From an uncultured Eubacteriales bacterium (lineage in GTDB: Bacteria > Bacillota > Clostridia > TANB77 > RGIG9151): a stretch of DNA of 12,451 bases. Shown here in pieces: positions 1 to 12,451 of the stretch; positions within the stretch are counted from its first letter, which is position 1, and every line of letters starts with the position of its first letter. The position numbers were made by a program, and so were the translations under genes. The notes under the pieces are model-generated. The model made no database searches, was not told the origin of the DNA, and saw nothing but the letters and a program-made list of their open reading frames with translations. The stretch is taken from assembly GCA_964478905.1 (NCBI GenBank), contig CAYZJZ010000028.1, positions 1-12,451 on the forward strand. The letters run 5' to 3'.

Positions 1-1
1 A

Positions 2-1105
<1,104 letters not shown>

Positions 1106-1133
1106 AATAAAACACTATGAGAGGAGTAAAAAA

Positions 1134-4100
1134 ATGTTTGAACTAAATAATTTTGATAGTATTAAAATTAGTCTTGCTTCACCGGAAAAAATAAGAGAAT
1201 GGTCAAAAGGTGAGGTTAAGAAACCTGAAACTATTAATTATAGAACATTAAAGCCTGAACGTGATGGCTTGTTCTGTGAAAAAATATTTGGACCTCAAAA
1301 AGACTGGGAATGTCATTGCGGAAAATATAAAAGAGTAAGATACAAAGGCATTGTATGTGACAGATGTGGTGTTGAGGTTACTAAATCTAAGGTTAGACGT
1401 GAGAGAATGGGGCATATTGAACTTGCTGCCCCGGTTTCACACATTTGGTATTTTAAAGGAATTCCAAGTCGTATGGGACTTATATTAGACCTTTCTCCAA
1501 GATCATTAGAAAAAGTATTGTACTTTGCTTCATACATCGTTATGGATGCAGGTGCAACGGCTCTTATGAAGAAACAAGTTTTAACTGAAAAAGAATATGC
1601 TGACGCTAAGGAACAATATGGTGCAAATGCATTTAGAGTTGGAATTGGTGCTGAAGCTATTCGTGAATTATTAAAGGAGATAGACTTAGAGTCTTTATCT
1701 AAAGAATTAAGAGAAGAAATGAACGCATCAAGCGGTCAAAAGAAAGTAAAGATTATAAAAAGACTTGAAGCTGTTGATTCGTTTAGATTATCAGGAAACC
1801 GTCCTGAATGGATGATTTTAGACGTTGTTCCTGTTATTCCGCCGGATCTTAGACCTATGGTTCAACTAGATGGTGGAAGATTTGCAACATCTGATTTAAA
1901 TGATTTATATAGAAGAGTTATAAACAGAAATAATCGTTTAAAGAGATTACTTGATTTAGGAGCTCCTGAAATTATAGTTAGAAACGAAAAGAGAATGTTA
2001 CAAGAAGCGGTAGACGCATTAATAGATAACGGTAGACGTGGACGTCCTGTTACAGGCCCTGGAAACCGTCCTCTAAAATCTTTATCTGACTTATTAAAAG
2101 GTAAGCAAGGTCGTTTTAGACAAAACTTACTAGGTAAACGTGTTGACTATTCAGGACGTTCTGTTATCGTTGTTGGTCCGGAACTAAAGATTTATCAGTG
2201 CGGTGTGCCAAGAGAAATGGCTATTGAATTGTTTAAACCATTTGTAATGAAAAGATTAGTTGAAAACGGAATGGCTCATAATATTAAGAGTGCAAAACGT
2301 ATGGTAGAACGTGTTAAGCCGGAAGTATGGGATATCTTAGAAGAAGTTATCAAAGAACATCCTGTAATGTTAAACCGTGCTCCAACACTTCATAGACTAG
2401 GTATTCAAGCGTTTGAACCGGTTTTAGTAGAAGGAAGAGCTTTAAAATTACATCCATTAGTTTGTACAGCTTTTAATGCTGACTTCGATGGTGACCAGAT
2501 GGCTATTCACCTTCCATTATCTGCTGAGGCTCAAGCTGAAACAAGATATTTAATGTTATCTGCTCATAACTTGTTAAAACCTCAAGACGGTAAACCGGTT
2601 ACAGTTCCTACACAGGATATGGTACTTGGTAGCTACTATTTAACATATGAAACAGGTATGAATGATGACAGAGTACCTTCATACTTAGTAGATGTTCCGG
2701 AAGACGAAAGATATGCAAAGGATGCTGACGGAAACTTTGTACTAGATGAAAACGGAAATAAGAAATTACTTCTAAAGGCTTTCTATGACAAAGATGAAGC
2801 GTTTGAAGCATATTCAGTTAACGCTATAAAGTTACAAGATCCTATCTTAGTAAGATTTACAAAGGAAATAGACGGAGTTAAGAAATCTAAAGTTGAAAAA
2901 ACAACAATGGGTAAGATTATATTTAATGAGTCTGTTCCTCAAGATATCGGATTTGTAGACAGAAGTATTCCTGAGAATGAATTTAGAATGGAAGTTGACT
3001 TCTTAGTTACAAAGAAAGAACTAGGAAAAATTATTGATAAGTGTATTAGAAAATACGGCTTTACTATTTCTGCCGATGTTGTAGATAAAATCAAGGCAAC
3101 AGGTTATAAGTACTCTACTCGTAGTGGTATTACTGTTGGTGTTGCAGATATGCAAATTCCGGGAGTAAAAGAACAACGTATTAAAGAGGCTGAAGCTAAG
3201 GTAGAAAACATAACAAAACAATATCAAAGAGGATTACTTTCCAACGAGGATAGAAGAAATTCTGTTATTTCAATTTGGGAAGATACAACAAAAGTTATTA
3301 CACAAGACTTGATGGATGGATTAGATAGATTAAATCCGGTTTATATGATGGCTCACTCAGGAGCCCGTGGTAATGTCAACCAGATTAGACAACTTGCCGG
3401 TATTCGTGGACTTATGGCGGATACATCAGGTAAAACAGTTGAAATTCCTATTAAATCAAACTTAAAAGAAGGACTTGATGTTCTAGAATACTTTATTTCT
3501 TCTCACGGATCTAGAAAAGGTCTTGCTGATACAGCTCTTCGTACTGCTGACTCTGGTTACTTAACAAGACGTCTTGTTGATGTCAGCCAAGATGTTATTA
3601 TTCGTGAAGAAGATTGTGGAACTGACAAGGGTATTTGGGTTGAAGACGTTACAGAAGGTAAGGAAATTATTGAACCGCTTTCTGAAAGACTTGTTGGTAG
3701 AACTGCAATCGGTGATGTAGTAAATCCTGAGACAAATGAAGTTATGGTTAAGGATGGAGAATTAATTACTGAAGCTCAAGCTAAGGCTATTGAGAAAGCA
3801 GGAATTAAGAAAGTATATATTCGTTCAACACTTACTTGTCATTCAAGACACGGTATTTGTGCTAAATGTTATGGTACTAACTTGGCAACAGGTAAACCTA
3901 TTAATATTGGTGAAGCAGTTGGTATTATTGCTGCTCAATCCATTGGTGAGCCTGGTACACAGCTTACGATGAGAACGTTCCATACAGGTGGTGTCGCTGC
4001 TGCCGGCGGTGATATTACACACGGTTTACCTCGTGTTGAGGAAATTTTTGAAGCTAGAAAGCCTAAGGGACTTGCTGTTATTACTGAAATTAAAGGTAAT

Positions 4101-4754
4101 GTTACAGTAAGTGACAACAAGAAAAAGCGTGAAGTTACAGTAACAGATCCGGACGGAGATGCAAAGACATATTTAATTCCTTTCGGTTCAAGATTAAAAG
4201 TTCGTGACGGAGACTATGTTGAAGCCGGAGATGAGTTAACAGAAGGTTCTGTAAACCCACACGATATTATTAGAATAAAGGGCGTTGACGGAGTTCAATT
4301 ATATATGCTTCGTGAAGTTCAAAAGGTTTATAGAATGCAAGGTGTTGATATCAATGATAAACACATCGAAGTAATTGTTCGTCAAATGCTTCGTAAGATT
4401 AAAATTGATGAAGCCGGAGATACAAACTTCTTACCTGGAATTTTGGTAGATATGTTTGAATTTGAAAGTGAAAACGAAAGAGTTGTAGCTGAAGGCGGAA
4501 CACCGGCTACCGGAAAACAAACATTACTTGGTATTACTAAAGCGGCTTTAACTACTGAATCTTTCTTATCAGCAGCATCATTCCAAGAAACAACAAGAGT
4601 TTTAACTGATGCAGCTATAAAAGGAAAAGTTGATCCATTAGTAGGACTTAAAGAAAACGTTATTATCGGTAAATTAATTCCTGCAGGAACAGGTATGTCA
4701 AGATATAAAGATATAAACATAAAAACAGTTAAAGATGACGAAATAATGGATTAA
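1134..4754 (+). CDS. rpoC: DNA-directed RNA polymerase subunit beta'
   Basis: The track ORF opens at 1089 inside rpoB. ATG 1134 ([24 protein letters not shown], the typical beta' N-terminus) sits 7 nt after GAGGAG (1121-1126). A Zn-binding [20 protein letters not shown] is present, as are the catalytic NADFDGDQM (2475-2501), the trigger-loop [10 protein letters not shown] and [17 protein letters not shown]. Stop TAA is at 4752-4754. Confidence 0.97.
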
Positions 4755-4784
4755 AAAAAGGTGGACTCAGGTCCACCTTTTTTA
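4753..4784. terminator. Bidirectional rho-independent terminator shared by rpoC (+) and the convergent small ORF (-)
   Basis: Perfect 7-bp GC-rich stem GGTGGAC (4760-4766) / GTCCACC (4771-4777) with a 4-nt loop TCAG. An A-run (4753-4759) precedes it and a T-run (4778-4783) follows, so a hairpin plus U-tract forms on both strands. The stop of the minus-strand ORF (4782-4784) overlaps the T-tract. Confidence 0.88.
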
Positions 4785-4943
4785 GTCTTTACATATAAAC
4801 GTTCCACAACAAGTTCCGTCAGATGTATGAGCTTTACCTGACATATTATTTACATCTAGTTGTTTTGCTGTACAAAAGTGATTATTCCAATATGTGCAAG
4901 TATCTACACTACAGTGAACCGGCATTTTATTTGGATTTCCCAT
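4782..4943 (-). CDS. Small cysteine-rich protein, DUF1540-like (53 aa); absent from the ORF track
   Basis: Hand translation of the minus strand gives MGNPNKMPVHCSVDTCTYWNNHFCTAKQLDVNNMSGKAHTSDGTCCGTFICKD*. GGAG (complement of 4953-4956) lies 9 nt upstream of ATG 4943-4941. An in-frame ATG at 4952-4950 abuts the SD and is less likely. The pattern C-x4-C-x7-C-x20-CC-x-TF matches my recollection of the DUF1540 (PF07561) signature of Firmicutes. The ORF ends in the bidirectional terminator. Confidence 0.72.
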   Translation of the reverse strand: MGNPNKMPVHCSVDTCTYWNNHFCTAKQLDVNNMSGKAHTSDGTCCGTFICKD

Positions 4944-4994
4944 ATAACTCATCTCCTTTTTCTTAGTTTGTACATTTTTTTATAAATATATGCT

Positions 4995-5059
4995 TAAGAT
5001 TCGTTACTATTAAGATATTGTCTTTTGTAAAACAATAAGATTCAATAGTAAATAAGATA
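4995..5059. repeat. Duplicated bipartite direct repeat (TAAGATTC-N8/9-TAAGATA, twice) in the divergent intergenic region; candidate operator
   Basis: TAAGATTC occurs at 4995-5002 and 5036-5043. TAAGATA occurs at 5011-5017 and 5053-5059. The intra-unit offset is 16-17 bp and the unit-to-unit offset is 41-42 bp. An 8-bp inverted repeat, TTACTATT (5004-5011) / AATAGTAA (5044-5051), is interleaved with them. Confidence 0.5.
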
Positions 5060-5081
5060 CAGTTAAAGTTTTATGGAAATA

Positions 5082-5109
5082 TTGACGAATATACACTTGG
5101 AAATATGTA
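5082..5109 (+). promoter_or_regulatory. Candidate sigma-A-type promoter for the NRPS gene
   Basis: TTGACG (5082-5087), a 16-nt spacer, then TATGTA (5104-5109). The -35 is good, but the -10 lacks the conserved final T, so this is weak. It lies about 15 nt upstream of the AAGGAGG RBS (5125-5131). Confidence 0.3.
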
Positions 5110-5139
5110 GTTTGTATCGAAACTAAGGAGGCAATGAAA

Positions 5140-8100
5140 ATGGATAAAAAAATGTATTTGTTATCACGTCCGCAAAAGACTATTTGGTATATGGAAAAGC
5201 TATACAAAGGCTCAGGAATGACCAATATTTGCGGTACTGTAAGATTTAAAGCAAAAGTTGATTTTGAATTGTTATATAAAGCGATTAATATTTTTGTCTC
5301 AAAAAATGATGCTATGCGTTTGAAAATTTTGGAAGATAATGGTGAACCATACCAATATGTAAAAGATTATCAAGAATATAAACCGAAATTTGTTGATTTT
5401 TCCGGTAAAACAAAAGAAGAATTTTACAGGTGGGAAGAGTATGAAAGTAGAAAACCGATAGATACTTCTGAAAACTTTTTGTTCGAATTTATTATGCTTA
5501 AATTTAGCGATAATGAAGGAGGATATTTTATAAAAGTTAATCATATAATAGGCGACGCTTGGAGTATTATGCAACTTGTAAGCGATGTAAAAGACATATA
5601 TTCTGAGTTAGTTTATGGCAATTTTAATGAATATGAAAAGCCTTCTTATTTAGATTTTGTAGATGCTGAAGAAGAATATTTTAATTCAAAACGTTATTCT
5701 AGCGATAAACAATATTGGGAAGAAAAATTAAAGGATTTTGAAGAAGTAACGGTACTAAAAGATAATGTAGGGGATAAAAGCTTTACTAAAGCTACGAGGA
5801 AGACATTTTTAGTTCCAGATAAATTAAGAAATAAGATGCTGTCTTTTTGTGATGAAAATAAAGTTTCCGAATATGCTTTATTTGTCGGAGCTATTGCGAT
5901 GTACATAAACAGAGTTAAAAATAAAGAAAATATAATTTTTGGAACGTCTTTGTTAAATAGAACAGGTGTAAAAGAAAAAGAAACCATAGGAATGTTTGCA
6001 AGTACTGCTGTGCCGCTTAAAGTTGATATTAAAGATGATGCTAATTTCGACACTTTTATAAAGCAAATTTCAAAGGAAATTTTGTCGGTATTAAGACACC
6101 AAAAATATCCGTATGATGAAATCTTAAAAATAGCTCAATGTGCTAATAAATCCACAGATAAGATATTTGATATAGTCCTTAATTACCAAAATGCAAAAGG
6201 AACAAAGGGCGTATTGGAGAAAGAAATTCCATATTCTACAAGGTGGAACTTTAATGGCGAACAAATAGAGTCTTTAATTATCAACATTAATGATAGAGAT
6301 AATGAAGGTAAATTGATAATAGATTATGATTTCTTAAATCATATGTTTTGTGATAAAGAAATTGAGTTTTTACATCAACATATTATAAATATTTTATGGC
6401 ATGCTTTAGATAATCCAAGTAAGTTGATTTCTAAACTTGAGATGCTTTCAGAAGATGAAAAAAATCAAATTTTATATGATTTTAATGATACAGAAGCTAG
6501 TTATAATGAAGAAATTACAATACATCAACTGTTTGAAGAAATGGCTAAAAAATATCCTGATAATATTGCTGTTAAATTTGAAGAAGAAAGTATTACATAT
6601 AAGGAATTAAATTATAGAGCAAACAGTCTAGCTAGGACTCTAAGAAAGTTGGGGTTAAAACGACAAGAGATTGTTACAGTTATTATGTATAAATCTATTA
6701 ACACAATAATTTCAACTTTGGCTATTTTAAAGGCTGGAGGAGCTTATTTACCGATTGATCCGGATTTTCCAAGTGACAGGAAAAAGTTTATGATTAGCGA
6801 TTGTAATTCTAAAATACTGCTTACAGAAAATACGTTAAAGGATAAAAACCCGTTTGATGGAAATGTAATTTGTTTGGATGATGAGAATGTATTTTGTGAG
6901 AATAAAGATAATTTAGAAAATATAAACGAACCAAGTGACTTATTGTATATAATTTACACGTCCGGGTCTACAGGAAATCCTAAAGGAGTTATGCTTGAAC
7001 ACAGGAATGTTGTAAGATTATTATTTAATAGTAAATTTGAATATGATTTTAACGAATCAGATATATGGACAATGTTCCATTCGTATTGTTTTGATTTTTC
7101 TGTATGGGAAATGTACGGAGCTTTATTATATGGAGGCAAACTTGTAATTATATCTAAAGAAACTTCAAAAGATTTGAATAAATTTGTGAAACTACTTAGA
7201 AAAGAGAAAGTTACGGTACTTAATCAAACTCCGGCTATGTTTTATAATGTTATTAATGAAGAACTGTTGTATGAAGATAGTTCACTAGATATAAGGTACG
7301 TAATCTTTGGTGGAGAAGCATTAAATCCAAGCAAATTAAAGCCTTTTAAAGATAAATATCCAAATTGTAAACTTATTAATATGTACGGAATAACTGAAAC
7401 CACAGTGCATGTTACATTTAAGGAGCTAACAGATGAAGATATAAAAATAGGAAAAAGCAATATAGGTAAGCCAATTCCAACTCTAAAAACATATATAATG
7501 GATAAAAATTTAAACCTTTTACCAGTTGGAATTCCGGGAGAAATTTGTGTTTCAGGTAGCGGAGTTGCCAGAGGTTATTTAAATCAAGTTGAGTTGACTA
7601 ATAAAAAATTTGTTGTAAATCCATATAATGCTAATGAAAGATTATACCGTTCCGGTGATTTGGGAAGATTTTACGCCAAGGGAGATATTGAATATTTAGG
7701 AAGAATAGATAATCAAGTAAAAGTAAGGGGCTTTAGAGTAGAAATAGGTGAAATTGAAAGAAACATTTTGAGTTTTGATGGAATAGAGGATACTGTTGTT
7801 GTTCCACGAAAAGATGAAAATGAAAAAAGTTATTTAGTAGCTTATATAGTATGTGAAAAAGAGATAAATATTCAAGAGTTAAAACTTCATTTACAGGATT
7901 TTATGCCTGTTTATATGGTACCATCTTATTTTGTTGTTATGGATAAATTGCCACTTACAGTAAACGGGAAAATAAATAGGAAAGAATTACCTGAACCTCA
8001 AAGAGAAATTGAAAATGATATTCCATTTGTTTCACCTAGAAATGAAACAGACGAAGCTTTGCAATTAGTTTTTTCAGAAGTATTAAAGATAGATAATATA

Positions 8101-9459
8101 GGAATAGATAATAATTTCTTTGATATGGGTGGAGATTCTTTGACAGTTATTCAAGCTTTAACAAAGTTATATAAATATAATTTTAAAATTACGGCAACAG
8201 ATTTTTATAAATATCCAACTATTAGACAACTAAGCGACAAGATAAATAATGAGGAAGAACAGGAAGAAGAAAATGAATTTTGTGAATATGCTAATGTTCC
8301 TCATTTAAATAAAACTGATAAGTTAACATTTAGAAAAATGGAAAATGTTTTAGTTACCGGTCCTACGGGATTTTTGGGTAGTCATATAGTAAAGAGTTTA
8401 TTAGATAATACAGATGCAAAAGTATACTGTTTAGTAAGAGGCAAGGATAGTCAAGAGTGTAAGGAGCGATTTGAAAAAATATTTAAATTCTATTTTAATG
8501 ATTTTAGCTATGAAAATAGAATTGAAATCGTAAAAGGCGATATTACTTTGCCTAATCTGGGAATAGAGCCTAAGTTATATGATATGCTTGGGAATTTGTT
8601 GGATAATATTATACATACTGCTGCTCTGGTTAAGTATTATGGAAAGTATTCTGAATTTGAGAAAATTAATATTGATGGAGTAAGAAATGTAATGACTTTT
8701 GCGAAAAACTATAACATAAAAATTAATCATATTTCTACTATTGGTATTTCCGGAAGTTACTTGGTTAGAAATAATATAAAATCTAAAGAACTCACAGAGC
8801 AAGACCTATTTGTTGGTCAAAATTATTCTGAAAATGCGTATGTTAAAACTAAATTTATAGCTGAAAATATGTTACTAAATGAAGTAAAAAATGGCTTAAA
8901 ATTAACTATATTTAGAATGGGTAACTTAACCGGAAGGTATGAAGACGGATATTTCCAAAGAAATGTAAATGACAATGCTTTTTATAATATATTGCGTTCT
9001 ATAATTGAACTAAAAAAAGTGTCTAGAGATATGGATGACGTTGAGGTAGAGCTTACACCTGTTGATATGGCTGCAAATTGTGTAGTTAATATTTCAAGAA
9101 CAAATGAGTGTGATTCTAGAATTTTTCATATAACGAATTATAAAGAACCTCATTTCGAAAAAATAAGAGATATGCTGGTAGAGCTTGGCTTTGAGATTAG
9201 TGTAGTAAGTAATGAAGAATTTAATAAATTTATAAAAGAAGTTTCTGAACGTGACGGAGAAAACGCTAGTCTTAGAGGAATAATTACAGATATAAACTCC
9301 GAAGGAAATTTAGATTACAATATACCGGTAAAAGCTACTGCTCATATTACAGAAGAATATCTTAAAATGTTAGGATTTTCTTGGCCGGATATAGAAATTG
9401 AATATATAAAGAAAATAGTGGATTATTTAAAAGGAATAGGCTATTTTTTGAATAAATAA
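5140..9459 (+). CDS. Single-module nonribosomal peptide synthetase, C-A(Thr)-T-R
   Basis: The ORF is 5134-9459. AAGGAGG (5125-5131) is only 2 nt from ATG 5134 and 8 nt from the in-frame ATG 5140, so 5140 is preferred; 5134 and 5152 are alternatives. All NRPS core motifs are present (see the domain features). Stop TAA is at 9457-9459. Confidence 0.95.
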   Translation: MDKKMYLLSRPQKTIWYMEKLYKGSGMTNICGTVRFKAKVDFELLYKAINIFVSKNDAMRLKILEDNGEPYQYVKDYQEYKPKFVDFSGKTKEEFYRWEEYESRKPIDTSENFLFEFIMLKFSDNEGGYFIKVNHIIGDAWSIMQLVSDVKDIYSELVYGNFNEYEKPSYLDFVDAEEEYFNSKRYSSDKQYWEEKLKDFEEVTVLKDNVGDKSFTKATRKTFLVPDKLRNKMLSFCDENKVSEYALFVGAIAMYINRVKNKENIIFGTSLLNRTGVKEKETIGMFASTAVPLKVDIKDDANFDTFIKQISKEILSVLRHQKYPYDEILKIAQCANKSTDKIFDIVLNYQNAKGTKGVLEKEIPYSTRWNFNGEQIESLIININDRDNEGKLIIDYDFLNHMFCDKEIEFLHQHIINILWHALDNPSKLISKLEMLSEDEKNQILYDFNDTEASYNEEITIHQLFEEMAKKYPDNIAVKFEEESITYKELNYRANSLARTLRKLGLKRQEIVTVIMYKSINTIISTLAILKAGGAYLPIDPDFPSDRKKFMISDCNSKILLTENTLKDKNPFDGNVICLDDENVFCENKDNLENINEPSDLLYIIYTSGSTGNPKGVMLEHRNVVRLLFNSKFEYDFNESDIWTMFHSYCFDFSVWEMYGALLYGGKLVIISKETSKDLNKFVKLLRKEKVTVLNQTPAMFYNVINEELLYEDSSLDIRYVIFGGEALNPSKLKPFKDKYPNCKLINMYGITETTVHVTFKELTDEDIKIGKSNIGKPIPTLKTYIMDKNLNLLPVGIPGEICVSGSGVARGYLNQVELTNKKFVVNPYNANERLYRSGDLGRFYAKGDIEYLGRIDNQVKVRGFRVEIGEIERNILSFDGIEDTVVVPRKDENEKSYLVAYIVCEKEINIQELKLHLQDFMPVYMVPSYFVVMDKLPLTVNGKINRKELPEPQREIENDIPFVSPRNETDEALQLVFSEVLKIDNIGIDNNFFDMGGDSLTVIQALTKLYKYNFKITATDFYKYPTIRQLSDKINNEEEQEEENEFCEYANVPHLNKTDKLTFRKMENVLVTGPTGFLGSHIVKSLLDNTDAKVYCLVRGKDSQECKERFEKIFKFYFNDFSYENRIEIVKGDITLPNLGIEPKLYDMLGNLLDNIIHTAALVKYYGKYSEFEKINIDGVRNVMTFAKNYNIKINHISTIGISGSYLVRNNIKSKELTEQDLFVGQNYSENAYVKTKFIAENMLLNEVKNGLKLTIFRMGNLTGRYEDGYFQRNVNDNAFYNILRSIIELKKVSRDMDDVEVELTPVDMAANCVVNISRTNECDSRIFHITNYKEPHFEKIRDMLVELGFEISVVSNEEFNKFIKEVSERDGENASLRGIITDINSEGNLDYNIPVKATAHITEEYLKMLGFSWPDIEIEYIKKIVDYLKGIGYFLNK
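5155..6435 (+). other. Condensation (C) domain, probable starter/lipoinitiation type
   Basis: C1 LSRPQKTIWY; C2 KNDAMRLKI; C3 VNHIIGDAWS (5539-5559, that is NHxxxDA rather than HHxxxDG); C4 YLDF; C5 IGMFASTAVPLK; C6 HQKYPY. Blocks KNDAMRLKILEDNGEPYQYV, LSFCDENKVS, NRTGVKEKETIGMFASTAVPLK and LRHQKYPY closely resemble my recollection of the N-terminal C domain of surfactin synthetase SrfAA. That comparison is from memory and is not a computed alignment. Confidence 0.8.
6514..7989 (+). other. Adenylation (A) domain, predicted threonine-specific
   Basis: A3 YTSGSTGNPKG (6955-6987); A4 FDFSVWE (7090-7110); A5 NMYGITET; A6 GEICVSGSGVARGY; A7 YRSGDLGR; A8 GRIDNQVKVRGFRVEIGEIE; A9 MPVYMVPS; A10 NGKINR (7963-7980). 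By-eye alignment to GrsA-PheA gives the pocket residues D235, F236, W239 (FDFSVW), N278 (VLNQTP), I299 and G301 (VIFGGE), M322 (NMYG), V330 and H331 (TTVHV) and K517. Together these read DFWNIGMVHK. Confidence 0.85.
8035..8250 (+). other. Thiolation / peptidyl carrier (T) domain
   Basis: FFDMGGDSL core, with the phosphopantetheinyl Ser codon at 8137-8139, followed by an acidic linker NNEEEQEEENE. Confidence 0.88.
8341..9456 (+). other. Terminal thioester reductase (R) domain, SDR fold
   Basis: NAD(P)H-binding VLVTGPTGFLGSH (TGxxGxxG, 8356-8379), HTAA, ISTIG, catalytic YVKTK (YxxxK, Tyr codon 8839-8841) and a C-terminal substrate-binding subdomain ending ...LGFSWPDIEIEYIKKIVDYL. Confidence 0.88.
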
Positions 9460-9473
9460 TACAAAAGAAAAGA

Positions 9474-11450
9474 GTGATAATTGTGAAAAAGAAGTCTGAT
9501 GCACTTGATATTATAAATGTTTATAATATTATAATTATTGTACTTGGAACGGTGTTTTATTTCCTATTACCAACTTTATTAAATTTTGCACCGGGTTCAT
9601 ATAATAGCTATTTTGAAACTCAGATAGATGCCGGAATGAATTATGTTGTTCAATTTGTTTTAGCTATATTTGCAGTTATTGTTATTGTAGATATTTTTGT
9701 GTGGTTTCAGTTTAAAGAGATTAAAGGATTGAATAAAATTACTGAAAATAGAGATAAAATAGTAAGAATTAAAACAAAGTGCTTTAGACTTCCTTTTCGA
9801 TTATATTTGTATGAGATAAGTATAATTCCGGTAATAATTGCAGCGGTTTTATGGATAACTAAGACGGAGATAGGGTTAATTGTAAAGATTACTGTATTAA
9901 TATTTTTGTTTGCCACAGTTCTTTCTATATGTGCATATATTTTTACTAAAAACAAAATGAAAAAACTTTTTAGTAGAATAAATAATTTTGAAATATGTGG
10001 AGGAAAATCTAATCTAAATTTATCTACTAAGACATTTCTCCAAATTTTTCCGCTTTTTTTAGTTATTGCTGTGTTTTTAGCGTTTTTAGGATATGCAAGA
10101 TTGGTATATGAAAAAGGTATAATAAGGTTTGAGGAAACAAAAACTAAATTATGTGAAAATATACCGGCAACTTTAGAAAGCGAAAAAGAATTAATTGACA
10201 GTATAAATAAAATATCTTTTTCTAATATTGAAAACGAAATATTTATAATAAAAAATGATGAAGTAATGTTTTATGAAGGTAGTCCACTAAGTAGTTTTTT
10301 CGTAAAATATGCAACAGTTTTAGGCAAAGAATATGATGGGCATTTATATGACTATTATGGTTCAGATATTCAAGGAACGGCGATATATAGAGAGATAGAA
10401 GATGTTAATTATATAGTTGGCGTAAAGTATAATTTAGCTTCAAGTGAGATAATATTAATTTTGGTTGAAAGTATTGTTTTTATGTTGATTTTATCGGCAT
10501 TTGTACTTGTGTTTTTATGTAAAGATATAGCTGATGATATTAGTATGGTAGGAAACTATTTATTCAAACTTTCTGAGCAATCAAGTATTGATTATAATAA
10601 GAAACTTCCTGTTACTTCTAATGACGAAATAGGGGAGCTTGTTATTGCTTTTAATAAAATCTTGGACTTAGAAAAGAACAATATAGAGACTATGACACGA
10701 AATCAAGAAATTTTGGTTGAACAGGAGCGTTTGTCGTCTTTAGGTCAATTAATCGGAGGTATTGCTCATAACTTAAAAACTCCGATAATGTCTATTTCCG
10801 GAGCTTTAGAAGGTATTGAAGACTTAATTAAAGAGTATGATGAATCTATTGAAGATAATCAAGTTACTAAAGAGGATCATCATCAAATTGCGGGAGAAAT
10901 GGCTGAATGGATAACTAAAATAAGACCGTATTTATCGTATATGACTGAAGTTATTGATGCGGTAAAAGGACAAGCCGTTTCTATGAACGCATCTACTGTT
11001 GGAGAGTTTTCAGCGGAGGAGCTTATCGCAAGGACCCAAATTTTAATGAAAAATGAGTTAAAAAGGCGTCATTGTAATTTGAATTTAGACCTAAATATAA
11101 GTGAAAATACCCATATAAAGGGTGAAATAAGTGCTATTGTTCAAGTTATGGATAATTTAATCATAAATGCAATGGATGCTTATGGAGAAAATGGTGGAAA
11201 TATAGATATTAAAGTTAGAGAGGATAGCGAAAAGATTTATATAGAAGTAGCTGACCTTGCAGGCGGAATAGCCGAAACTGTAAAAGATAAGTTATTTAAG
11301 GAAATGATAACTTCTAAAGGTAAAAACGGAACAGGGTTAGGACTTTATATGTGTTATTCTACTATTAAAGGTAAGTTCGATGGAGATATGTGGTTTGAAA
11401 GTAAAGAAGGTGTTGGAACAACTTTCCATATTGTACTTAATAGATTATAG
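9474..11450 (+). CDS. Membrane sensor histidine kinase (6 TM, extracytoplasmic loop, HAMP, HisKA, HATPase_c); no cognate response regulator in the window
   Basis: Non-ATG start: GTG 9474 or GTG 9483. The first ATG is codon 55, inside the predicted TM2, and the SD-like element is only weak (GAAAAGAG, 9466-9473). Hydrophobic segments fall at about aa 16-37, 56-79, 108-129, 133-157, 187-209 and 325-349, and the Lys/Arg-rich loops fit positive-inside topology. HAMP-like NDEIGELVIAFNKIL is present. The H-box is LGQLIGGIAHNLKTPI (His codon 10767-10769), the N-box DNLIINAMDA, G1 DLAGGI and G2 GTGLGLYM. Stop TAG is at 11448-11450. Confidence 0.9.
   Translation: MIIVKKKSDALDIINVYNIIIIVLGTVFYFLLPTLLNFAPGSYNSYFETQIDAGMNYVVQFVLAIFAVIVIVDIFVWFQFKEIKGLNKITENRDKIVRIKTKCFRLPFRLYLYEISIIPVIIAAVLWITKTEIGLIVKITVLIFLFATVLSICAYIFTKNKMKKLFSRINNFEICGGKSNLNLSTKTFLQIFPLFLVIAVFLAFLGYARLVYEKGIIRFEETKTKLCENIPATLESEKELIDSINKISFSNIENEIFIIKNDEVMFYEGSPLSSFFVKYATVLGKEYDGHLYDYYGSDIQGTAIYREIEDVNYIVGVKYNLASSEIILILVESIVFMLILSAFVLVFLCKDIADDISMVGNYLFKLSEQSSIDYNKKLPVTSNDEIGELVIAFNKILDLEKNNIETMTRNQEILVEQERLSSLGQLIGGIAHNLKTPIMSISGALEGIEDLIKEYDESIEDNQVTKEDHHQIAGEMAEWITKIRPYLSYMTEVIDAVKGQAVSMNASTVGEFSAEELIARTQILMKNELKRRHCNLNLDLNISENTHIKGEISAIVQVMDNLIINAMDAYGENGGNIDIKVREDSEKIYIEVADLAGGIAETVKDKLFKEMITSKGKNGTGLGLYMCYSTIKGKFDGDMWFESKEGVGTTFHIVLNRL
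10101..10445 (+). other. Predicted extracytoplasmic sensor loop of the kinase (about 115 aa between TM5 and TM6)
   Basis: The loop is flanked by hydrophobic helices and is mixed alpha/beta-looking (..IFIIKNDEVMFYEGS..GTAIYREIEDVNYIVGVKY..), which is compatible with a small PDC/Cache-like fold. The fold assignment is inference only. Confidence 0.45.
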
Positions 11451-11590: not shown

Positions 11591-12451
11591 ATGAAAAAAA
11601 TACTTTTTACCGGTTCAGGTGTTGCACTTGTTACACCGTTTACAAATGACGGAATTAATTTTGATGTCCTAAAAGAGTTAATTGACTTTCATATTGAAAA
11701 TGAAACTGATGCAATTGTTGTTTGCGGAACTACTGGAGAACCTTCTACTATGACAGCGGAAGAATGGAAATCTGTTATAGATTTTACTGTAAAAAATGTT
11801 AATGGCCGTGTAACTGTAATTGCCGGAACTGGATCTAATGATACAAATGAAGCTGAAAGAAGAACAAAAGTTGCAAAGGAGCTAGGCGTGGACGGGGCTT
11901 TGGTTGTGACTCCATATTATAACAAAACTACACAACGAGGAATTATTGAGCATTATAAATGTATAAACGAAGTAGGTATTCCTGTTATAGTTTATAATGT
12001 GCCGTCTAGAACAGGTCTTAATATAAATTCAAAAACAGCTTATGAACTTTCAAAGTTAGAAAATATCGTTGGCATAAAAGAAGCGAGCGGAAATTTTTCA
12101 CAAATTGCTGAGATAGTTTCATTATGTGGCGATGAGTTACATATCTATTCCGGAAATGATGACCAAGTTTTACCTATACTTGCTTTAGGTGGGAAAGGGG
12201 TTATATCTGTTTCGGCGAATGTAATTCCGAACGATACTCACCTTATGGTAAAGAGCTTTTTTGATGGCGACATTGAAACAAGTAGAGAGTTACAGCTAAA
12301 GGCGATAGATTTAATTAATACTTTGTTTTTTGAAACTAATCCAATTCCGGTAAAAGAAGCAGTTCGCCAAATTGGTTTTGATGTTGGAAAGTGCAGGTTA
12401 CCGCTTATAGATGTAGATGAGAAAGGTCAATTAAAGATTTCAGAAGCTTTA
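11591..12451 (+). CDS. dapA: 4-hydroxy-tetrahydrodipicolinate synthase (3' end outside the window)
   Basis: It is absent from the ORF track because it runs off the window. AAGGAGGG (11577-11584) lies 6 nt before ATG 11591. The translation MKKILFTGSGVALVTPFTNDGINFD...VVCGTTGEPSTMT...TPYYNK...VYNVPSRTG...VGIKEASGN shows the DapA GTTGE, YN-P-RT and Schiff-base Lys (codon 12077-12079) motifs. The frame stays open to 12451. Confidence 0.95.
   Translation, partial: MKKILFTGSGVALVTPFTNDGINFDVLKELIDFHIENETDAIVVCGTTGEPSTMTAEEWKSVIDFTVKNVNGRVTVIAGTGSNDTNEAERRTKVAKELGVDGALVVTPYYNKTTQRGIIEHYKCINEVGIPVIVYNVPSRTGLNINSKTAYELSKLENIVGIKEASGNFSQIAEIVSLCGDELHIYSGNDDQVLPILALGGKGVISVSANVIPNDTHLMVKSFFDGDIETSRELQLKAIDLINTLFFETNPIPVKEAVRQIGFDVGKCRLPLIDVDEKGQLKISEAL

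Follow-up and report, generated by a model that had tools for sequence, protein, structure and literature searches.

A stretch of 12.4 kb of DNA from an uncultured member of the Clostridia, referred to here as the window (the whole stretch that was analyzed), raises the question of what a single nonribosomal peptide synthetase (NRPS) gene does downstream of the RNA polymerase genes. The gene (5134 to 9459, + strand) is intact and encodes a protein of 1,441 amino acids with condensation (C), adenylation (A), thiolation (T), and thioester reductase (R) domains. The original prediction treated it as a stand-alone, one-gene pathway. This part of the prediction was not borne out, since the NRPS proved to be the first gene of a conserved cassette in which it is followed by a gene for a histidine kinase of 658 amino acids (9474 to 11450, + strand). 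Because this cassette is conserved, the likely role of the NRPS shifts from production of an orphan metabolite to participation in a signal/receptor pair. From the comparisons presented below, we rate the chances as slightly better than even that the two genes belong together functionally, with the NRPS producing a small-molecule signal and the kinase acting as its receptor in the membrane.

The linkage of the two genes was observed from both sides. The genomic context was read for 12 relatives of the NRPS, which range from 80% to roughly 42 to 47% identity and include one-module forms, an N-methylating form with a methyltransferase, two-module R-terminated forms, and a two-module thioesterase (TE)-terminated form. 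In all 12, a multi-transmembrane (multi-TM) kinase of 604 to 670 amino acids is encoded directly downstream on the same strand. In the reverse direction, an alignment of nine kinases was scanned against metagenome contigs, many of them labeled human gut metagenome, and the best 80 of 468 confirmed relatives were kept. When NRPS genes were counted wherever at least 4.6 kb of upstream DNA was present, a C-A-T-R NRPS was found directly upstream of the kinase, on the same strand, in 51 of 51 loci (34 of 34 once these had been dereplicated at 95%). Three further loci (L015, L020, and L071) have the reverse gene order, kinase and then NRPS. The window itself has the kinase gene starting 14 nucleotides after the NRPS stop codon, with no terminator between the two. 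Synthase and putative receptor genes are thus adjacent and co-oriented, and their linkage is conserved across taxa.

A third gene commonly completes the cassette. Directly after the kinase, 54 of 64 loci (35 of 43 dereplicated) encode a regulator composed of a REC domain and an HD_5 domain in which the HHE...GYP signature is intact, and some copies also contain DUF3369. Kinases and regulators of the same kind accompany the two-module relatives P0004 and P0047. At one locus of the P0047 family, which has 217 member sequences, genes for TraG/type IV secretion system-like and DnaJ-like proteins separate the kinase from the REC-HD-GYP regulator (L095, 17341 to 21163), and it looks as if a mobile element has split this cassette. 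A TE-terminated two-module relative with Ser and Thr codes (L096, 7114 to 18439) has a phosphopantetheinyl transferase (PPTase) gene upstream, and downstream of it lie genes for a HisKA_7TM kinase and a REC-DUF3369-HD-GYP protein. Since this TE-terminated relative keeps both kinase and regulator, the kinase link is not specific to reductive release.

The kinase consists of a variable sensor and a conserved transmitter. The sensor region (9474 to 10520; residues 1 to 349) had no match among Pfam families. An AlphaFold2 model (pLDDT 78.5) places in it five TM helices, an extracytoplasmic alpha/beta domain at about residues 208 to 325 (about 90 to 115 amino acids), and a sixth TM helix; K/R-rich loops at residues 80 to 108 and 158 to 185 fall on the cytoplasmic side, in agreement with the modeled topology. 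Foldseek matches obtained with the full kinase model were dominated by the kinase core. The start of the protein is uncertain, as GTG codons occur at both 9474 and 9483, and several relatives begin with MKKK, which fits the start at 9483. The sensor is followed by a HAMP linker (10521 to 10685; about residues 350 to 404, with a weak Pfam HAMP match at 373 to 396) and then by the core (10686 to 11450), which contains a DHp domain with His432 and an ATPase domain (HisKA, residues 423 to 460; HATPase_c, residues 553 to 655). This core is 93 to 96% identical to those of the related loci L009 and L007. Other NRPS-linked kinases form a second group, in which the sensor is of the HisKA_7TM type, with or without a PAS domain, and is unrelated to that of the window kinase. 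Because the cores of these HisKA_7TM-type kinases, which have a REC-HD-GYP partner, stay 54 to 59% identical to the window core despite the unrelated sensors, the transmitter, judged from these alignments, is one family to which interchangeable sensors are attached.

Which sensor is attached was found to co-vary with the NRPS. Forty-six dereplicated kinases were compared pairwise and matched by kinase-core identity, and the specificity codes of the neighboring A domains were scored as matching when they differed at no more than one position. For core identities of 0.9 to 1.0, sensor identity was 0.88 when the codes matched versus 0.42 when they differed; the corresponding values were 0.82 versus 0.24 for core identities of 0.8 to 0.9 and 0.53 versus 0.26 for core identities of 0.7 to 0.8. 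No discordant pair of sensor and A-domain code was present among the pairs with core identity above 0.8.

Individual pairs of loci showed how such differences are distributed along the DNA. Upstream of the start codon of the NRPS gene, loci L044 and L093 are 99 to 100% identical; the same level of identity resumes at about kinase codon 370 and extends through the genes for the regulator, Tex, and ABC-F, whereas the whole NRPS gene and the kinase sensor between these points are only 40 to 65% identical in DNA. At the protein level, their regulators and kinase cores are 100% identical, their sensors are 26% identical, and their codes are DLTKIGEVGK and DIFQMAGIFK. The window and L007 differ in a related way, with identities of 91% for the C domain, 44% for A, 54% for T, 45% for R, 52% for the sensor, and 96% for the kinase core, and with a Thr code in the former versus a Ser code in the latter. 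Nucleotide identity in this pair falls from 80 to 93% to 45 to 69% at about position 6500; window positions 5134 to 6483 pair with L007 positions 6559 to 7908 (the C part), and positions 6499 to 9456 pair with the rest of the L007 NRPS gene. On this alignment, the NRPS gene is a recombination mosaic. Compared with L009, in which the Thr code is kept, the NRPS domains are uniformly 77 to 86% identical and the sensor is 68% identical. Within the HisKA_7TM class, L006 and L012 share a common genomic context, regulators that are 96% identical, and an equivalent break in the kinase, and yet one of them has a one-module NRPS and the other a two-module NRPS.

The change from variable to conserved sequence occurs at the HAMP/DHp junction of the kinase (window residues 392 to 419) in six pairs and at residue 351 in one. 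The left break varies, lying at the NRPS start in L044/L093 and at the C/A junction in window/L007, while the right break is fixed at the sensor/transmitter junction. As read from these alignments, a block made up of the NRPS (or its A-T-R part) and the kinase sensor is exchanged on a constant backbone of kinase core and regulator. This is the arrangement of pherotypes, in that the sensor co-varies with the synthase code while the transmitter stays constant, although the variable block is contiguous.

That contiguity is one of several points that weigh against the two genes being a matched synthase and receptor. Since the A-T-R part directly adjoins the sensor-coding part of the kinase gene, a single recombination tract could give rise to co-variation without functional coupling, and the break-points may lie simply where homology suffices for recombination to begin. 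The label permutation P value for co-variation of sensor and code (about 5e-4) ignores phylogeny. Moreover, the window has no REC gene beside the kinase, which is followed by dapA, and no adjacent response regulator is found in L005, L007, L009, or L010 either. From such observations it might be argued that the ligand of the kinase is something else (a nutrient, a cue from the host, or stress on the membrane, for example) and that the sensor co-varies by hitch-hiking on its neighbor; in all pairs examined the variable block is uninterrupted, the kinase core with its high conservation is a natural anchor for recombination, and the regulator is missing from beside the kinase throughout the window subclade. 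We consider this explanation distinctly improbable. Against it stands the linkage without exception among the dereplicated kinase loci and in every NRPS context read, which spans two unrelated sensor architectures, one- and two-module NRPSs, and both R and TE release. A right break fixed at the sensor/transmitter junction while the left break moves, together with the lack of discordant pairs above a core identity of 0.8, likewise argues against it.

If the NRPS makes a signal, the domains of the enzyme should indicate what kind of molecule is made. Translation probably begins at the second ATG (5140), given that a ribosome binding site (AAGGAGG) ends at 5131 and that the relative P0001, which is 99% identical, has 1,439 amino acids; no identical protein is on record, and the next closest relatives, P0002 and P0003, are 91% and 80% identical. 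The complete C, A, T, and R set that had been predicted for this open reading frame (ORF) was recovered as Pfam and NCBIfam domains with their core motifs, all on the + strand. An N-terminal C domain of the starter-position type (5149 to 6474; residues 6 to 447; Pfam, 3.5e-76) is followed by the A domain (6532 to 7971; residues 467 to 946), in which AMP-binding (residues 467 to 816) and AMP-binding_C (residues 873 to 946) were matched (Pfam, 4.1e-92) and which scored 428 bits against the NCBIfam model TIGR01733 (cut-off, 317). The T, or carrier, domain (8056 to 8238; residues 975 to 1035; PP-binding, 3.9e-13) has the motif GGDSL with Ser1002. The R domain (8344 to 9444; residues 1071 to 1437) contains TGPTGFLG and YVKTK, so that the predicted TGxxGxxG and YxxxK motifs are both present; NAD_binding_4 was matched at residues 1074 to 1316 (Pfam, 1.9e-49), and the score against TIGR01746 over residues 1071 to 1437 was 204.4 bits, slightly under the cut-off of 213.35.

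The A-domain code was read as DFWNIGMVHK, which is established as the Thr code (Stachelhaus et al. 1999). The by-eye reading in the original prediction was reproduced when a script mapped the ten positions to residues 654, 655, 658, 697, 724, 726, 750, 758, 759, and 946, and the match to the canonical code was exact. The same mapping applied to relatives gave DVWHFSLVDK (Ser, as in EntF), DLTKIGEVGK (Asn), and Gly-, Val-, and Pro-like codes, and the choice of positions is supported because these are textbook codes. Across the family, the codes vary, with Thr, Ser, Asn, and Gly-like codes and several that have no assignment. The statement that the window lacks a second module, TE, PPTase, MbtH, or ligase also stood up to a Pfam search of the window ORFs, a PPTase gene having been found upstream of the TE-terminated relative instead. 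The NRPS was considered as a fragment of a larger assembly line and this was rejected, with rpoBC lying upstream, the kinase gene and dapA lying downstream, and the relatives showing the same one-gene layout.

The part played by the C domain determines whether the product would be acylated. The original prediction proposed an acyl-starter role, and this proposal gained support. Over C-A-T, the window NRPS shares 46% identity with the first module of two-module C-A-T-C-A-T-R relatives from Clostridia, and its C domain is 46 to 51% identical to the N-terminal C domains of two-module relatives, versus 22% to the internal ones. The ligase encoded directly upstream of a 59% identical relative scored 510.8 bits against the NCBIfam long-chain-fatty-acid-CoA (coenzyme A) ligase model (cut-off, 476), and standalone AMP-binding genes that cluster with this ligase when ORFs are grouped adjoin the NRPS gene in 12 of 29 dereplicated loci. 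An acyl starter is therefore supported by the likeness to N-terminal C domains, by conservation of the C domain where A-T-R has been swapped, and by the ligases beside relatives. N-acyl tails have been described for some gut dipeptide aldehydes (review, PMC8210680). We infer that the product is N-acyl-threoninal or N-acyl-threoninol, and the sequence decides neither for the aldehyde nor for the alcohol.

Other observations call for caution. The first His of the HHxxxDG motif of the C domain is replaced by Asn, and several two-module relatives that share this N-terminal C domain reportedly give nonacylated pyrazinones upon heterologous expression. PDB chains of an LCL domain (TycC6, 1.1e-20) and of starter domains (7c1h/7c1k, about 1e-19) match the C domain alike and so do not separate the two types. 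In the window (5539 to 5559; residues 136 to 142) and in L007 the motif reads NHIIGDA, and in L009 it reads NHIISDA; all other relatives have HHxxxD[AGS], so loss of the first His is seen only in this subclade. If the C domain were idle or had no donor, free threoninal would be released and would dimerize spontaneously to a bis(hydroxyethyl)pyrazine, in a manner akin to PvfC-type A-T-R enzymes; this was the second option in the original prediction. Besides the substituted His, such a route would fit the lack of an acyl ligase or carrier gene in the window, and the pvf cluster is described as a signaling system (PMC10194917). The second, catalytic His and the Asp of the motif are nevertheless kept, and fatty-acyl-CoA ligases adjoin many relatives. 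Furthermore, when the window and L007 are compared, no domain of the NRPS is as well conserved as C, and 91% identity there versus 44 to 54% in A, T, and R indicates purifying selection on a working C domain. We therefore regard an idle C domain as improbable and retain an acylated Thr derivative as the predicted product.

Enzymes with known products helped to place the NRPS. It shares the C-A-T-R order of MxcG from the myxochelin pathway; however, no aryl carrier or dihydroxybenzoate genes occur in the window, and the code is Thr versus the Lys of MxcG. An MxcG-like aryl-capped siderophore module was rejected, as the score against NF038078 was 597.5 bits (cut-off, 2,300) and partner genes were lacking. 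The R domain of AusA (aureusimine) was the best NCBIfam match to the C-terminal part of the NRPS, but AusA has two modules rather than one, with codes for Val and Tyr rather than Thr. An AusA-like enzyme was rejected as well, with 835.1 bits against NF047350 (cut-off, 2,500), a single module, and no partner genes. The R-terminated NRPSs of gut Clostridia (Guo et al. 2017; ruminopeptin, Schneider and Balskus 2018) are reported to make dipeptide aldehydes, some of them N-acylated, and pyrazinones. Like the window enzyme, they come from Clostridia, begin with a C domain, and end with an R domain. They contain two modules, however, and because the window NRPS has only one, a dipeptide or pyrazinone could not be formed by the same route. 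As judged by sequence, the window NRPS is homologous to small R-terminated enzymes of Clostridia, and the likeness seen is to the two-module relatives described above. The role described for the gut dipeptide-aldehyde enzymes is inhibition of host proteases, and they are not known to serve in signaling.

This kinship raises the possibility that the product is a reactive warhead, an N-acyl amino aldehyde directed against proteases of competitors or the host, as has been reported for gut dipeptide aldehydes, with the kinase sensing the cell's own product for tolerance or for timing of production; the cassette would then be a weapon that includes a self-sensor and would not serve communication. 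Relatedness to two-module C-A-T-C-A-T-R enzymes of Clostridia (46% over C-A-T) would fit such a role, and an arms race would likewise yield diversifying alleles of NRPS plus sensor. In addition, a gene for an HtrA-like protease (Trypsin_2 plus PDZ) lies divergently upstream of the NRPS gene in many gut-type loci, 43 in all (at 2578 to 3720, - strand, in L044), which is curious because proteases are inhibited by peptide aldehydes; this gene sits in the constant flank, outside the variable block, and its adjacency may be plain synteny. The output encoded in relatives is a c-di-GMP (cyclic di-GMP) phosphodiesterase, which points to a switch of lifestyle and not to efflux or immunity, and the cassette has no conserved transporter or immunity gene. 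TE-terminated relatives, which are unable to make aldehydes, nonetheless keep the kinase and the regulator. Overall, we consider a warhead unlikely and prefer a signal that is read by the kinase.

A signal-receptor mechanism consistent with these data would proceed in five steps. The A domain, on the basis of its observed code, would activate L-Thr and load it onto the carrier domain. The N-terminal C domain would then N-acylate the Thr with an acyl-CoA or acyl-acyl carrier protein from primary metabolism, as suggested by the position of this domain and by the relatives that carry a fatty-acyl-CoA ligase. The R domain, in which the motifs are observed, would release N-acyl-threoninal and perhaps reduce it further to N-acyl-threoninol. 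This amphiphilic product would exit the cell and be read by the sensor of the co-transcribed kinase, with its six TM helices and extracytoplasmic domain; strict gene linkage and the co-variation of sensor and A-domain code are the reasons for proposing this step. Finally, the kinase would phosphorylate the REC-HD-GYP c-di-GMP phosphodiesterase. Since the regulator gene is not adjacent in the window, the partner there would be encoded elsewhere or have been lost. A pathway-specific transcription switch is unlikely because the regulator in relatives is not a DNA-binding protein.

Parallels exist with several known signaling systems. In the agr system of Staphylococcus and comQXP of Bacillus, a synthase gene lies beside that of a multi-TM kinase receptor, and a hypervariable block of synthase specificity and sensor sits next to a kinase core and a regulator that are conserved, as in the cassette. 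Both systems, however, use a peptide signal that is made on the ribosome and processed by AgrB or ComQ, and their output is a DNA-binding regulator, whereas here the signal would be an NRPS-made acylated, reduced amino acid and the output in relatives is an HD-GYP phosphodiesterase. The RpfF/RpfC/RpfG system of Xanthomonas, which uses the diffusible signal factor (DSF), follows the same logic, with a synthase of a lipid-like signal, a multi-TM kinase, and a REC-HD-GYP protein that hydrolyzes c-di-GMP. Unlike the window NRPS, RpfF belongs to the crotonase family; RpfC is of the hybrid kinase type, containing REC and HPt (histidine phosphotransfer) domains, and the host is a proteobacterium; an RpfG-type HD-GYP regulator is present in the Xanthomonas system and in relatives of the cassette, and none is present in the window. 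The CqsA/CqsS and LuxM/LuxN systems of Vibrio resemble the present proposal in that an acylated, amino acid-derived amphiphile made by one enzyme is read by an adjacent multi-TM kinase. CqsA, a pyridoxal phosphate-dependent acyltransferase, and LuxM belong to families unrelated to the window NRPS, and pherotype-like cassette swapping is not known for either system. With an acyl tail and a small polar head, the predicted N-acyl-threoninal or N-acyl-threoninol would be similar in shape to N-acyl-homoserine lactones. PvfC (A-T-R) of the Pseudomonas pvf cluster is likewise a single-module, reductase-terminated NRPS, and its products act as signals (PMC10194917). It has no C domain, requires tailoring by PvfB and PvfD, and comes from a proteobacterial host. 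No dedicated kinase receptor is known to be encoded next to PvfC.

The surroundings of the cassette in the window suggest that it has moved. The left part (1 to 4754) contains the 3' end of rpoB and a complete rpoC (+ strand). The RpoC protein is 92% identical to uncultured sequences and 74 to 75% identical to those of Ruminiclostridium and Acetivibrio, in keeping with the Clostridia-like host that had been proposed. The genes expected downstream of rpoC are rpsL, rpsG, and fusA; the window instead has the cassette there, followed by the 5' part of dapA from position 11591. G+C content drops from 0.35 to 0.39 in rpoBC (1 to 4754) to 0.26 to 0.29 across the NRPS and kinase genes (5000 to 11450). 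Members of the window subclade (the window, L005, L007, L009, and L010) occupy five different genomic contexts, and integrase genes adjoin the cassette in L005 and L007. Low G+C content, the odd neighborhood of rpoC, the five contexts, and the integrases together suggest relocation or horizontal movement of the cassette in this subclade.

The left boundary of the cassette is formed by a hairpin (4748 to 4788; GGTGGAC-TCAG-GTCCACC) with a run of A's on one side and a run of T's on the other. Its predicted folding energy is -22.4 kcal/mol (z = -5.8), a stability reached by 0 of 200 shuffled sequences, and it was missed by a scan for consensus terminators. It is likely a bidirectional terminator that serves rpoC on the + strand and, on the - strand, an ORF for a Cys-rich DUF1540 protein of 56 amino acids (4782 to 4952; Pfam, 6.9e-12), which is divergent from the NRPS gene. 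A copy with 95% amino acid identity is found at L009 (288 to 449, - strand), likewise divergent beside the NRPS gene, with otherwise unrelated flanks, and the ORF was not present beside the NRPS genes of the other relatives. This mini-protein may travel with the cassette, although its membership is uncertain. When the window and seven loci were scanned against Rfam, no riboswitch, for c-di-GMP or otherwise, was revealed upstream of the NRPS gene. In L005, a TwoAYGGAY RNA motif (Rfam RF01731; 5166 to 5307) scored 48.5 bits against a gathering score of 43 bits; some 4.7 kb separate it from the NRPS gene downstream, and it is unrelated to the cassette. A promoter scan gave fewer sites than shuffled sequence yields.

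The NRPS itself is of a known type; what appears to be new is the cassette, in which an NRPS is combined with a kinase that looks cognate and with an HD-GYP regulator, together with its pherotype-like swapping. The full-text literature searched, which did not extend to Guo et al. 2017, contained no description of such an NRPS-kinase-HD-GYP cassette, and a 2026 review of quorum sensing mentioned NRPSs for diketopiperazines only. The cassette family is widespread in anaerobic Firmicutes and human-gut metagenomes. As a broader and more tentative proposal, to which we give somewhat less than even chances, Clostridia, including abundant human-gut lineages, may make autoinducers with one- and two-module NRPSs that release their products by R or TE domains. 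The signals would be acylated amino acid or dipeptide aldehydes, alcohols, or acids, the readers would be the multi-TM kinases encoded next to the NRPSs, the relay to c-di-GMP would run through the REC-HD-GYP regulator, and strains would diversify into pherotypes by swapping the block of NRPS and sensor. On this broader proposal, Gram-positive quorum sensing would gain a chemically new class of signal, and the family of gut dipeptide-aldehyde NRPSs would acquire a native function. Natural allele swaps such as L044/L093 and window/L007 make the signal-receptor idea directly testable, and if it is true, matched pairs of synthase and receptor would be available for orthogonal synthetic signaling. 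If the kinase does read the product of the NRPS, the cassette would be a nonribosomal counterpart of agr/com pherotype signaling, and the family as a whole would form a programmable set of small-molecule "languages" wired to c-di-GMP. The reductase-terminated NRPSs of the gut would then be recast from producers of host protease inhibitors to producers of possible cell-to-cell signals.

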